Shown piece by piece: positions 737 through 4,479 of a stretch of 64,000 nucleotides of DNA. A program made the position numbers and the translations under genes. How positions within the stretch are numbered: the stretch's first letter is position 1; every line of letters begins with the position of its first letter. Below the pieces are notes generated by a model, which saw only the letters and a program-made list of their open reading frames with translations, made no database searches and was not told where the DNA came from. This DNA comes from Candidatus Saccharimonadota bacterium (GTDB taxonomy: Bacteria > Patescibacteriota > Saccharimonadia > Saccharimonadales > UBA4665): assembly GCA_036743655.1 (NCBI GenBank), contig DAINPB010000004.1:15788-79787 (forward strand), in the 5' to 3' direction.

Positions 737-2134
737 TTACTTGGCTCCGACCTTAACATCTTTAATCGAGCCCTTGAGGTAGAAGGCGCTCTCTGGCTTG
801 TCATCGTGTTTGCCGTCGAGGATTTCTCGGAAACTCTGGATGGTATCGGCTAATTTGACGTATTGGCCAGGGTTGTTGGTGAACTGTTCGGCCACGAAGA
901 ACGGCTGGCTCAGGAAACGCTGAATGCGCCGTGCCCGACCAACGAGTTGCTTGTCGTCTTCGGATAGTTCTTCCATGCCAAGAATGGCAATGATGTCCTG
1001 GAGGTCTTTGTAGCGCTGTAGGACACGCTGAACCTCACGGGCAACGGCATAGTGCTCCTCGCCGACAATCTCAGGATCGAGGATGGTTGAACTGGAATCC
1101 AGCGGGTCAACCGCCGGGTAGATACCGATCTCCGTCAGGGCACGGTTGAGCACAATCGTCGAGTCCAGGTGGGCGAAGGTGGTGGCTGGTGCCGGGTCGG
1201 TTAAGTCGTCGGCTGGCACGTAGACGGCCTGGACGGAGGTCACTGAGCCTTGTTTGGTCGAGGTGATGCGCTCCTGCAGCTGGCCCATTTCTTGCGCTAG
1301 GTTCGGCTGGTAACCGACGGCTGAGGGTAAACGGCCGAGAAGGGCAGAAACTTCGGCACCTGCCTGCGTGAAGCGGAAGATATTATCGATGAACAGGAGG
1401 ACGTCGTTACCTTTGTCGCGGAAACCTTCGGCAATCGTCAGGCCAGACAGCGCCACGCGCAAACGGGCACCAGGCGGCTCATTCATCTGGCCGAAGACCA
1501 GCGAGGTGTTCTTGAGTACACCGGACTCTTCCATTTCGTAGTAGAGGTCGTTACCTTCACGGGTACGCTCACCAACACCGGCGAAGACCGAGTAGCCAGA
1601 GTGGAATTTGGCAATGTTGTTGATCAACTCCTGAATCAGGACGGTTTTGCCAACACCGGCGCCACCGAAGAGGCCAACCTTACCGCCTTTGACAACGGGA
1701 CAGATCAGGTCGATGACTTTGATGCCGGTTTCCAGAATCTCGATGCTGCCAGCTTGGTCAATCAGGGGTGGGGGCGTGCGGTGGATCGGTGCTGACTCTT
1801 TGAACTCGTCCCCTTTGCCATCAATCGGCTGACCGGTGACATTGAACATTCGTCCCAGTGTCGCATCACCTATGGGGACGCTAATGGGCGCACCGGTGTC
1901 AGTTACTTCGGCGCCACGCTCCAGGCCATCTGTTGAGCTCAGTGCAATCGCGCGCACGCTCGATTCGCTGAGGTGTTGCGCTACCTCTAGTGTCACTTCG
2001 TGGTCTTCGAGCGTTACTTTGAGTGCATTATAAATCGCTGGCAGGCTGTCCGTCGTGAACTCAATGTCCACCACAACACCTACAATTTGTGTGATCTTAC
2101 CTACCTTAGTTTTTGCTTTAACTGCCGTCGCCAT
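737..2134 (-). CDS. atpD: F0F1 ATP synthase subunit beta
   Basis: 465 aa with Walker A GGAGVGKT and the ELSEDD acidic loop ([12 protein letters not shown]). Unmistakable F1-beta sequence. Confidence 0.97.
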
Positions 2135-2429
2135 GCCTTAAAATCCCTTCTTGTCGTCTTACTTCTACTCGATCAGAACGCTCCATTGCGTATCGGCGCG
2201 TAACACCATCAGACTGTCTTGCGATAATATCCCCTGAGAGCCCTGCAAAATCAAACATTTTGTTAACACCCACGGCTCCAGCTTTAGCCGCAAACGCAAT
2301 CATACGCTCTGCTTCTTGTTCACTTAAGCCAAGCTCTGTGGCTTCTTTTGCTGCCGCATCACGAATGAATGCCTCAGCGCGTTGCCCCGATGGGCTATAA
2401 TATGCCGTTACGGTTACTGCTTCACCCAT
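2118..2429 (-). CDS. hypothetical protein embedded in the atp operon (103 aa, Ala-rich)
   Basis: ORF track. Strong SD (AAAGGAG, 6 nt before the ATG at 2429). The stop overlaps the atpD start by 17 nt. Same strand as the operon. No domain recognised. Confidence 0.55.
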
Positions 2430-2453
2430 AGATCACTCCTTTCTCATCAAAAT

Positions 2454-2918
2454 TCATACCTGCACCTCCGCGCCGCCCGAAGTTTCGGCTAATCTCTTCT
2501 TTATAATATCGATATCGTTGCCAAACACGACAATTTCCACGCCTTTGACAACTTGGCCTACTTCGGTTCGTTCATCCACGAGCTCAATCGGCTGCGTTCG
2601 GTCTTCGCCCAATTCGTAATAGCCGACATCCTCCAGCGCCCACTGGCTAAACACCGGTTTTCCTAGCTTTGCCACAGCATTAACGCCGTTCAGAATGACG
2701 CGGTCCCAGCCTGCAAAATCCTTAACATTCATAGCGCCCACCAGCAGACCACCAATGTCGCGCATACTTTCTTCGTACCTAGTGGTTGGCTGATGCGTGA
2801 AGTCTTCTACATTAAGCCCATTATGTTCCAAAGCATCCCACCAAAATGTAGCCAAACAAAGACGTGAAATAGCAGCATCAGGAGAGCGAGAGGTAATTAG
2901 CCCGATCTTTTCACTCAT
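2454..2918 (-). CDS. hypothetical protein embedded in the atp operon, ending in a gamma-subunit-like tail (LAETSGGAEVQV)
   Basis: 154-aa ORF. Its ATG (2918-2916) overlaps the stop of the upstream ORF as ATGA. The C-terminus mimics the AtpG C-terminus LAEISGGAEALNG. Confidence 0.6.
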   Translation of the reverse strand: MSEKIGLITSRSPDAAISRLCLATFWWDALEHNGLNVEDFTHQPTTRYEESMRDIGGLLVGAMNVKDFAGWDRVILNGVNAVAKLGKPVFSQWALEDVGYYELGEDRTQPIELVDERTEVGQVVKGVEIVVFGNDIDIIKKRLAETSGGAEVQV

Positions 2919-3127
2919 CCGTTCAATGCCTCCGCGCCACTCATTCGTGGATCATTATTAATCAAATCCTGAGCAACCGGCTCCAGATACCACAGACTGT
3001 CTGGATGACAGCCGACATTGATGGCGATAGAACCCAGCATATCTTCGACGGTAACAACTTCGGGTTGGAAATCAAATAACGCTTCGACTAGATAATCGGC
3101 TGGCTCGAGGGACTTTATATCAACCAT
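2915..3127 (-). CDS. small hypothetical protein embedded in the atp operon, ending in a gamma-subunit-like tail (SGAEALNG)
   Basis: The ORF track gives 2915..3202 (95 aa). I prefer the internal ATG at 3127, which overlaps the atpG stop (AATGGTTGA) and gives 70 aa (MVDIKSLEPADYL...). The last 8 residues are identical to the AtpG C-terminus apart from one missing Gly. Confidence 0.5.
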   Translation of the reverse strand: MVDIKSLEPADYLVEALFDFQPEVVTVEDMLGSIAINVGCHPDSLWYLEPVAQDLINNDPRMSGAEALNG

Positions 3128-3986
3128 TGAGGGCCTCCGCACCACCTGAAATTTCGGCCAGCTGCTGGGTGATGTCCGCTTGACGTGCGGTGTTGAGCTC
3201 AAGCGTGTAGTCTTTGATCAGGTCGTTGGCATTGTCGGTGGCATTCTTGGTGGCCACCATGCGCATGGCGTGTTCGGAGGCTAGGCTTTCTAGCACCGCT
3301 TGCCAGATTTGAGCCTCGACGAGACGTGTGGTGACCTGTTCGATAACGGTTTCGACATCGGGCTCAAAGTTGCTGATAGCTGGTGCATCTGCATCGGCTG
3401 CTGGTGCCGGAGCGGGCAAGAGCTGTAAGCTCTGCGATTCCTGCACAATAGTAGATTTGAAAACAGTGTAGAGCACCTGGACATCGTCGACAGCGCCTGA
3501 CTCATACTGCTCGATAACGGTGTTCAGGATTGGTCGGATGTCATTGGCGGTCGGGTGATCACCGAATGGCTGATAGGCCGCTAACAGATCAACATCGTGC
3601 AGGCGACGGACGAATTGAGCGCCTTTGCTGCCAATGGTAATCACATGACTCTTAACCTTATCGTCGCGGTCACGGCGCAGGCCGGTGGTCAGCAGCTTCA
3701 GCGTATTGGCATTATAGGCACCTGCTAGGCCGGTGTTACTGGTCACAATGATGTAGAGGCGATTCTTGATCGGGCGTTTGCGGAATAACGGCTGCTGCTC
3801 AACCTCACCAATAGCGTTGAGCCGCTTCAGTAGGTCATAGGCCAAATCGCGGTAATCACGACTGCGCTGCGCATACTCCTGGGCACGCCGCAGCTTACTA
3901 GCCGAAACCAGCTCCATAGCCTTAGTAATCTGTCGCGTACTGCGAACAGAGCTAATACGGCGTTTGAGGACAATGGTGCTAGCCAC
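3120..3986 (-). CDS. atpG: F0F1 ATP synthase subunit gamma
   Basis: 288 aa with a GTG start. Typical gamma N-terminus (RRISSVRSTRQITKAMELVSASKLRRAQ) and C-terminal helix (ADITQQLAEISGGAEALNG). Confidence 0.93.
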   Translation of the reverse strand: MASTIVLKRRISSVRSTRQITKAMELVSASKLRRAQEYAQRSRDYRDLAYDLLKRLNAIGEVEQQPLFRKRPIKNRLYIIVTSNTGLAGAYNANTLKLLTTGLRRDRDDKVKSHVITIGSKGAQFVRRLHDVDLLAAYQPFGDHPTANDIRPILNTVIEQYESGAVDDVQVLYTVFKSTIVQESQSLQLLPAPAPAADADAPAISNFEPDVETVIEQVTTRLVEAQIWQAVLESLASEHAMRMVATKNATDNANDLIKDYTLELNTARQADITQQLAEISGGAEALNG

Positions 3987-4479
3987 GTCGCTCCTTTGTA
4001 GCCTGTACTTCTTGGCTGTATGTCCGGATAGCCTCCAACTCCCTCATTGCCATCGCGAAGGTTAGCGGTGGCGTCATGCCTGCTGGCCACTGGGCATCAG
4101 GAAGTTCAAGCGCCCTCATGAGCGGCCGAAACCATCCACTAACAGCGAGCTGAGCTACCTTATAAGCATACTGCGGCGCGGAATCGAAGGGCATATTTAT
4201 GCCCTCATCCACGGTCGTCTCCAGTCTTTTATTGGCAAATGTAGCTGGAAGCGATTCATGATCACTTCGAAACTTCAGGGCGATATACGAGCAGATATCA
4301 CCGGCCAGCCAGTCATTTTTTTTGAGCCGTTCTTTCAAGGCTATGATTTGCTCATCCGTTAGCCGTTCTGGATCATCTTCGTTCAGCGGCGCTAGCACGA
4401 ATTCTGACGTCCACCAGGCAAGACTGTCAGGCGTATTTCCGTCTCTTATACTTATAACCGCTGGTAATATTTCACTCAT
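3979..4479 (-). CDS. hypothetical protein inserted between atpA and atpG (166 aa)
   Basis: ORF track. Same strand as the operon. Its TAG overlaps the atpG GTG start by 8 nt and its 3' end contains the atpG SD (AAGGAG). No domain recognised. Confidence 0.55.
   Translation of the reverse strand: MSEILPAVISIRDGNTPDSLAWWTSEFVLAPLNEDDPERLTDEQIIALKERLKKNDWLAGDICSYIALKFRSDHESLPATFANKRLETTVDEGINMPFDSAPQYAYKVAQLAVSGWFRPLMRALELPDAQWPAGMTPPLTFAMAMRELEAIRTYSQEVQATKERRG

Follow-up and report, generated by a model that had tools for sequence, protein, structure and literature searches.

Four small open reading frames between the F1 genes of an atp operon

The ATP synthase operon is among the most conserved gene arrangements in bacteria. 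We have analysed the atp operon in a 64,000-nucleotide (nt) stretch of contig DAINPB010000004.1 (the window; all coordinates below are window positions), which belongs to a 1.24 Mb Candidatus Saccharimonadales (TM7 / Patescibacteria) genome of 31 contigs and 51.6% G+C. Within this operon, one open reading frame (ORF) lies between atpA and atpG and three lie between atpG and atpD, as described in a first-pass annotation, and both this layout and every coordinate given there were confirmed in the ORF table and the sequence. The gene order on the minus strand is atpA, ORF166, atpG, ORF70, ORF154, ORF103, atpD, the ORFs being named for their length in amino acids (aa). We refer to the occupied junctions as slots. 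The elements concerned are as follows (pI, isoelectric point; GC3, G+C content at third codon positions).

4507-6057, minus strand: atpA (F1 alpha), upstream flank of slot 1, 75-94% identical to relatives' atpA
3979-4479, minus strand: ORF166, from the ORF table and sequence, pI 4.8
3120-3986, minus strand: atpG (F1 gamma), Pfam ATP-synt, E 3.6e-84
2915-3127, minus strand: ORF70, ATG start, pI 4.1
2915-2938, minus strand: atpG 3'-end copy no. 1, comprising the final 24 nt of ORF70 with its stop
2454-2918, minus strand: ORF154, pI 4.6
2465-2492, minus strand: atpG 3'-end copy no. 2, encoding LAETSGGAE near the ORF154 end
2436-2442, minus strand: AAAGGAG Shine-Dalgarno (SD) motif, 6 nt before the ORF103 ATG, read from the sequence
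2422-2457, minus strand: 11-codon mini-ORF, read from the sequence
2118-2429, minus strand: ORF103, pI 5.4, GC3 0.35
737-2134, minus strand: atpD (F1 beta), downstream flank of slot 2, from the ORF table

The four ORFs share the strand of their flanking genes and are placed for translational coupling, as had been proposed. A 27-nt spacer separates the atpA stop from the ORF166 ATG. ORF166 and atpG overlap by 8 nt (GTGGCTAG) with AAAGGAG upstream, atpG and ORF70 share a second 8-nt overlap (ATGGTTGA), and ORF70 and ORF154 are joined by a 4-nt ATGA overlap. ORF154 is followed by a 24-nt spacer holding the AAAGGAG SD of ORF103, and the last 17 nt of ORF103 overlap the atpD start. Coupled pairs are recognised as co-directional genes at -4 or -1 or at a very short distance; ORF70/ORF154 fits with its ATGA, and the other pairs stand at -8, -8, -17 and +24 with an SD. 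The mini-ORF at 2422-2457 has its ATG on the ORF154 stop (ATGA) and its TGA 5 nt inside ORF103, and possibly serves as a relay over the 24-nt ORF154-ORF103 spacer. An alternative TTG start at 3202 would extend ORF70 to 95 aa; an independent gene caller predicted the 70-aa gene on contig L109.

The view that the block leaves no room for separate promoters or terminators was upheld, as promoter-like and terminator-like sites are at chance level, their frequency not exceeding that in shuffled sequence. No minus-strand, and hence sense-strand, terminator-like site was found within 2100-4500, and an Rfam search gave no match. The further suggestion that the products would be made stoichiometrically linked to the F1 subunits was drawn from this geometry and is not supported as it was stated.

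The arrangement is 100% identical on a separately assembled 3.1-kb Logan contig (SRR3984963), and ORF166 alone is also 100% identical on a 543-bp ENA contig. Because of the identical arrangement on the separately assembled contig, a binning artefact is unlikely as the cause of the interruption; being 100% identical, the second contig carries zero polymorphism information. A broader form of this explanation, in which the pattern reflects an assembly or annotation artefact, either a chimeric contig or a decaying atp operon, is scarcely credible. It could draw on the atp operon of the relative G020, which is full of stop codons, and on the dispensability of the ATP synthase in a cultured relative (PMC10633639), but is opposed by the identical 3.1-kb contig, by the intact and highly conserved state of all eight atp genes, and by the recurrence of the same pattern in dozens of independent genomes.

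Coding potential was scored by a codon log-likelihood, for which 524 long ORFs from the genome served as the training set; the gene mean is 0.195 and the 5th percentile 0.05. For each of the four ORFs the annotated frame outscores the other five, the scores of ORF154 (0.148) and ORF70 (0.091) being inside the gene range. None of the four matches Pfam, NCBIfam, PHROG or PADLOC, which bears out the first-pass statement that they contain no recognisable domain.

ORF166 and its family at the atpA-atpG junction

Searches with phmmer relate ORF166 to the genes occupying the atpA-atpG slot in L023 (same genus), L026, L033 and L038, and also to a standalone 280-aa protein in G035, the E values against individual family members being 1e-8 to 5e-11. 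A profile was built from five slot genes, ORF166 among them; the E of 2.4e-45 with which ORF166 scores is therefore against a profile partly built from ORF166 itself. Among 1.84 billion representatives this profile recovered 80 clusters, 34 at E of 1e-10 or better and most of them 100-165 aa in length. The proteins of 37 of the 80 clusters end in [NHDYRGSC]G, compared with 15 of 864 background ORFs, an ending that is forced by the 8-nt overlap with the atpG start, ATGGCTAG/A or GTGGCTAG. Two additional family members that were inspected both lie between atpA and atpG, and two others, together with the G035 protein, are located away from this slot at unrelated loci, giving an atpA-atpG position in 7 of 10 inspected contexts. 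The family accounts for 5 of the 19 ORFs in the atpA-atpG slot. Its members carry conserved motifs at a pairwise identity of 26-33%, a range found alike at atpG identities of 75% and 91%.

The AlphaFold2 (AF2) model of ORF166 (predicted local distance difference test, pLDDT, 70.2; predicted template modelling score, pTM, 0.63) contains a five-helix bundle at residues 42-165 preceded by a disordered N-terminus. Foldseek comparison of the model with the PDB gave no match (best E 0.85, TM below 0.25), and neither did comparison with the viral structures of BFVD. ORF166 itself combines the profile match, the position between atpA and atpG and the 8-nt overlap. Sequence and predicted model together place ORF166 in a real family of folded proteins associated with the atpA-atpG slot. 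Of the profile and structure searches foreseen in the first-pass annotation, the former thus recovered the ORF166 family, and Foldseek gave no match and no domain appeared in any ORF. A candidate scar of the atpA end at the ORF166 3' end was rejected, its score of 13 lying under the null 95th percentile of 15.

ORF154, ORF70 and ORF103

Weak relatives of ORF154 are found directly after atpG in L032, L036 and L026. The phmmer E against L032 is 5e-3, and a leave-one-out profile gives 1.4e-3 in a set of 79, where the next match is at 0.17. By these similarities ORF154 appears to be a weakly conserved gene of the post-atpG slot. A likeness of ORF154 to the nucleoside 2-deoxyribosyltransferase fold, proposed by eye, was rejected, as hhalign against L095 (the slot gene that was taken, by eye, to be the one with the Pfam match described below) gave a probability of 0.3% and the AF2 model could not be used.

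ORF70 is composite. Its residues 4-39 match the N-terminus of the 155-aa slot genes L067 and L065, with a blastp E of 7e-5 to L067 in a small set, and its last seven residues are those of the atpG C-terminus (GAEALNG*, 7/7). From these two matches ORF70 reads as a chimera of the start of a 155-aa slot gene and the atpG 3' end. ORF103 has no homolog in 400 genomes of the order, in a word-indexed set of 5.8 billion proteins or in phage records, and by this criterion is an orphan, either young or very fast-evolving. Reuse of an old atpD initiation region as the ORF103 start scored 15, where the null distribution has its 95th percentile at 14 and its maximum at 16; this is marginal, and no claim is made for it.

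Word-based homology searches with ORF166, ORF154 and ORF103 returned the query itself only, and no paralog of any of the four was found elsewhere in the genome. None of them matched the Pfam or NCBIfam profiles of core ATP synthase subunits, and likeness to gamma is limited to the last 7-9 residues of ORF70 and ORF154. Matches to AtpI / ATPase_gene1 (PF03899, PF09527) were likewise absent from the four ORFs, the PF09527 gene of the operon being a separate ORF. No likeness to epsilon, zeta, IF1, AtpI/Z, Atp11 or Atp12 was detected by Pfam, by PDB profile search or by Foldseek of the ORF166 model. Transposase, integrase and endonuclease domains were not found in the four ORFs, the sole repeats being the direct copies of the atpG end, and PADLOC, PHROG, phage records (tblastn) and a viral fold search gave no match. 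The concern that the ORFs might be lineage-specific junk lacking conservation therefore holds for part of the block: ORF166 is a member of a conserved family and ORF154 is weakly conserved, and ORF70 is a chimeric remnant and ORF103 an orphan.

Copies of the atpG 3' end within the block

The last 24 nt of the L033 atpG match 2915-2938, the end of ORF70, with 1 mismatch (23/24), and 28 nt from the end of the atpG of L023, which is of the same genus, match 2465-2492, within ORF154, with 3 mismatches; in each case 0 matches are expected by chance. Each copy departs from the end of the resident atpG at six positions, which for the ORF70 copy is 6/24. At the protein level the ORF154 tail copy scores 37, compared with at most 29 in controls. 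The copies contain GGAGG at a distance suited to an SD for the next overlapping start, in copy no. 1 10 nt before the ORF154 ATG, and each supplies the stop codon of a stop/start overlap. Because the copies match the atpG of other lineages better than the resident gene, they suggest recombinational insertion. The ORF70 tail and the resident atpG tail differ synonymously. Selection on the peptide was rejected as the cause, as the tail of ORF70 is 23/24 identical to the atpG end of another lineage; import or ancestry explains the differences.

An independent case occurs in G012, where an 87-aa ORF following atpG ends in 22 gamma C-terminal residues (Pfam ATP-synt positions 259-285). Duplication of the atpG tail is significant only here and in G012, and is not a general mark of slot genes.

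A lineage-wide insertion hotspot at F1 junctions

Junction lengths were surveyed in the 80 closest atpG loci in public genomes, almost all of them from Candidatus Saccharimonadales or Saccharibacteria, a gap of at least 150 nt being counted as large. Loci with large gaps were distributed as follows.

atpB-atpE: 2/63
atpE-atpF: 0/63
atpF-atpH: 0/67
atpH-atpA: 0/69
atpA-atpG: 16/78
atpG-atpD: 34/79
atpD-atpC: 13/72

The four Fo/stator junctions together have large gaps in 2 of 262 cases, and the insertion hotspot is limited to the three junctions that follow alpha, gamma and beta. In a second survey atpA, atpG and atpD were located in 40 species-level relatives, 35 of which could be assessed; about 22 of these 35 have an expanded atpA-atpG junction, an expanded atpG-atpD junction, or both, the expansions measuring from about 170 to 950 nt compared with 13-50 nt between contiguous genes. 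Among 46 Patescibacteria from outside the order in which atpG and atpD are neighbours, about 8 show a gap of at least 150 nt. The tendency to hold fillers is thus wider than Saccharimonadales but weaker outside it. The synteny comparison accordingly found the interruption to recur across related genomes. It is not peculiar to this operon, as about half of Saccharimonadales and some other Patescibacteria hold unrelated small ORFs at these positions.

All 51 large atpA-atpG and atpG-atpD gaps in 81 loci are at least 80% tiled by sense-strand ORFs, the mean ORF coverage being 0.98 in sense, 0.58 in antisense and 0.43 in shuffled sequence. Sense-ORF tiling of the gaps therefore exceeds chance. A Pfam match (Nuc_deoxyrib_tr) is present in only one of the 56 slot ORFs that reach 70 aa, and among ten further slot ORFs from other relatives there was one 23S rRNA intervening-sequence (IVS) protein (PF05635, E 2e-37). 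The slot proteins are acidic, with a median pI of 4.7 and 49 of 56 below 6, compared with a median of 6.5 for the long ORFs of the genome. The slot ORFs are mostly unrelated to one another, and these junctions have the attributes of a hotspot, namely the same flanks, differing content and more insertions than neighbouring junctions. In two slot-gene families with closer pairs, the proportion of nonsynonymous differences (pN) is 0.33-0.36 and that of synonymous differences (pS) 0.86, with a nonsynonymous rate (dN) 2-8x the atpG dN in the same genome pairs. As pN is well below pS in these two families, at least some fillers appear to evolve fast yet under purifying selection.

Several loci in the survey have individual features. 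In L064 (4864-5995) and L069 (4870-6095), 3-5 coupled filler ORFs are stacked between atpG and atpD in gaps of 1131 and 1219 nt, respectively; the L064 stack ends in a 56-aa ORF, the C-terminus of which (EMDTKEQ) recurs in L062 and L063. At the L032 atpA/atpG junction (~3990-4010), atpA ends in ...AATGGCTAG, followed directly by ATGGCTAGC, so that the 8-mer ATGGCTAG is tandemly duplicated and atpA ends in NG, like slot-1 genes; this tandem 8-mer may have been left by the deletion of a slot gene. A 124-aa 23S rRNA IVS protein (PF05635, also bAvd-like) fills the atpA-atpG slot of G015 (L019:5473-5847). In the family-level relative G020 (C3:387668-391142), stop codons are present in atpA (6), atpG (9) and atpD (3), and this operon may be decaying or poorly assembled.

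Translational relay and turnover as a probable explanation of the slots

We consider it fairly probable, from the sequence comparisons described above, that the four ORFs are relay-translated, fast-evolving accessory fillers of slots whose contents turn over, and are not core subunits; binding of the fillers to F1 is possible. The four would occupy two of the three slots that Saccharimonadales atp operons typically have, one each behind alpha, gamma and beta. They would be transcribed as part of the operon, and a stop/start overlap or nearby SD would let their translation run in relay with that of the F1 genes. Overlapping gene pairs are known to be translationally coupled by termination-reinitiation (PMC6728339, PMC10666635). 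Inserts that break the relay would probably lower atpG or atpD expression, so that only in-frame, same-strand, coupled ORFs would be expected to persist. Turnover of slot contents would be quick, ORF70 being the putative stump of another slot gene fused to the atpG end.

New inserts would probably arrive by recombination with the DNA of relatives. One end of the insert would be anchored in conserved atpA, atpG or atpD and the other joined illegitimately within the resident atpG 3' end, which, to judge from the two tail copies, would be pushed downstream and supply the new ORF with its C-terminus, SD and stop/start overlap. Of the resulting fusions, only those in frame, through which ribosomes still reach atpD, would survive. 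Median identity is 77% for atpA and 83% for atpD, the best conserved genes of the operon, and 40-51% for atpI, atpB, atpF and atpH, so that atpA and atpD would be good recombination anchors. Saccharibacteria are naturally competent (PMC10633639) and one-sided homologous recombination has been documented (PMC3240628). The F-type ATP synthase is dispensable in transposon sequencing (Tn-seq) of a cultured Saccharibacterium on its host (PMC10633639), and this dispensability may be the reason why the operon tolerates insertions.

A number of results weigh against this explanation. The codon scores of ORF166 (0.023) and ORF103 (-0.011) are below the 5th percentile of genes and close to 0.019, the 95th percentile for out-of-frame windows, and GC3 is 0.35-0.51 in the four ORFs compared with 0.58-0.66 in the atp genes. 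Synonymous divergence (dS) is saturated in every available pair, which makes dN/dS unusable as a gauge of purifying selection on the four ORFs; pairs from the ORF166 family were indistinguishable from a codon-shuffled control. The AF2 model of ORF154 is unusable (pLDDT 34.7). No significant atpG-end copy was found in the other 34 loci with a large atpG-atpD gap, and with clear tail copies limited to this operon and G012 insertion may seldom follow the proposed route. Nor does the anchor argument account for the difference between atpH-atpA (0/69) and atpD-atpC (13/72), and the 8- and 17-nt overlaps exceed the classic coupling overlaps of -4 and -1.

An alternative, which we regard as unlikely, is that the ORFs, or at least ORF166 and ORF154, encode true lineage-specific partners of F1 that could, for instance, chaperone the assembly of alpha, gamma or beta, restrain ATP hydrolysis or add a component to the stalk or cap. 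Synthesis beside the subunit to be bound would suit such a role, and it is common for both genes of an overlapping coupled pair to encode subunits of the same complex (PMC10666635). The slots of tight geometry occur only after the three F1 core genes, never at Fo/stator junctions, the ORF166 family is tied to its slot by the overlap signature in 37 of 80 clusters and by 7 of 10 inspected contexts, and the ORF166 core is confidently predicted to be helical. This restriction to F1 junctions, together with the slot fidelity of the ORF166 family, would favour a role at F1. Against a core role, turnover is high, close relatives fill the same slot with unrelated sequences and many have none, members of the ORF166 family also reside at unrelated loci away from atp genes, and no likeness in sequence or fold to epsilon, zeta, IF1, AtpI/Z, Atp11/12 or other known regulators and chaperones is apparent. 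A family identity of 26-33%, whatever the atpG identity, would also be unusual for the partner of a slowly evolving enzyme. As unrelated small ORFs occupy the same F1 junctions in relatives, position alone does not make these ORFs F1 partners.

It is also conceivable, though decidedly improbable, that the frames stay open solely to deliver ribosomes to the next atp gene, the peptides being functionless spacers or raw material for new genes. ORF103, an orphan with a near-null codon score and the lowest GC3, ORF70, a chimeric stump, and ORF154, modelled as disordered, are all consistent with this, as are the tiling of every gap by sense ORFs, almost none with a known domain, and the bias of their sequences toward acidic, low-complexity composition. 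Such spacers would not be expected to have the conserved motifs, confident fold and 80 clusters of the ORF166 family, or slot-gene pairs with pN well below pS, and ORF103 has a strong SD of its own and no need of a relay.

A small, acidic, hypervariable, patchy and rapidly replaced set of proteins also resembles conflict cargo using the operon for constitutive expression, for example immunity or decoy proteins against the toxins of host or competitor, or anti-phage or anti-restriction functions, and the gene for a 23S rRNA IVS / bAvd-like four-helix bundle in the atpA-atpG slot of G015 would be in keeping with this. With PADLOC, PHROG and phage searches giving no match, no viral structural match and no partner toxin or mobility gene nearby, we regard conflict cargo as very improbable.

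Relay-translated accessory fillers remain the explanation we prefer, and a bolder version of it may be advanced, for which we claim only a low probability. The three junctions could be obligatorily translated relay slots in which new small acidic proteins originate and are exchanged, competent Saccharibacteria swapping them via the atpA and atpD anchors, with the atpG-end scars as traces and with some survivors, such as the ORF166 family, directed at F1. If so, DNA landing in a slot would have to stay open and coupled, and would hence be expressed on arrival, and the ORF166 family might act as an F1 chaperone, hydrolysis brake or decoy.

Comparison with known systems

Bacterial pangenomes are known to contain flexible-genome insertion hotspots flanked by conserved core genes. 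The slots resemble them in having constant core flanks, variable and patchy content, fast turnover and renewal probably by homologous recombination in the flanks, but differ in lying inside one operon, between cistrons of one enzyme, and in a cargo of single small ORFs lacking a mobility gene, always in sense and joined stop to start. Termination-reinitiation pairs (PMC6728339, PMC10666635) likewise consist of co-directional genes that overlap by ATGA or another short stretch, the SD of the second lying within the first; here, in contrast, orphan genes are inserted between subunits, three overlaps are of 8, 8 and 17 nt and not 4 or 1, and coupling is predicted from sequence. The duplication of a resident gene end downstream of an insert is what one anchor and one illegitimate joint would produce in homology-facilitated illegitimate recombination (PMC3240628), a likeness suggested here by two short scars of 24 and 28 nt only.

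Other small genes are associated with ATP synthases or with highly expressed genes. AtpI and ATPase_gene1 (AtpZ-AtpR type, PF09527) are also non-subunit genes co-transcribed with ATP synthase; however, AtpI/AtpZ-AtpR are conserved membrane proteins encoded at the 5' end of the operon, whereas the fillers are predicted to be soluble, acidic, hypervariable and placed among the F1 genes. The small F1 regulators (the epsilon C-terminal domain, alphaproteobacterial zeta, mitochondrial IF1 and cyanobacterial AtpTheta) are similar to the fillers in size and may offer a functional analogy, but the fillers share no sequence or fold likeness with them, and none of these regulators is hypervariable or encoded between atpA, atpG and atpD. 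The 23S rRNA IVS proteins (PF05635) are small helical-bundle ORFs lodged inside highly expressed conserved genes, and one occupies the G015 slot; unlike these, the four ORFs of the window do not match PF05635.

No account of genes inserted into Saccharibacteria atp operons came up in full-text literature searches, and the habit of carrying fast-changing extra genes at F1 junctions is lineage-wide and apparently undescribed. That a whole order appears to use three atp junctions as slots for fast-changing, co-translated orphan genes is unexpected. The slots would constitute a natural system in which genes are born or imported within an expressed operon without breaking it, and they provide a short list of candidate Saccharibacterial F1 partners, with the ORF166 family first. 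The duplicated atpG ends offer a concrete model for how inserts may arise.

Other features of the operon and of related genomes

The remaining genes of the operon flank the interrupted region.

8294-8620, minus strand: PF09527-type gene (ATPase_gene1), from Pfam
7434-8297, minus strand: atpB, from the ORF table
7150-7377, minus strand: atpE, from the ORF table
6461-6997, minus strand: atpF, from the ORF table
6057-6464, minus strand: atpH, from the ORF table
306-734, minus strand: atpC, from the ORF table

The atpE-atpF spacer (6994-7149) is ~150 nt, unusually long compared with a median of 24 nt in relatives. Two more sets of F-type alpha-, gamma- and beta-like genes are carried outside the window on other contigs (G000 C21:6302-9886 and C7:17529-21220); they are 37-44% identical to canonical alpha and beta, and most relatives have at least one such set. 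In the Patescibacteria family f106 (G456, G480 and G503), the F1 genes are not within one operon, atpG and atpD being hundreds of kb apart or on different contigs.

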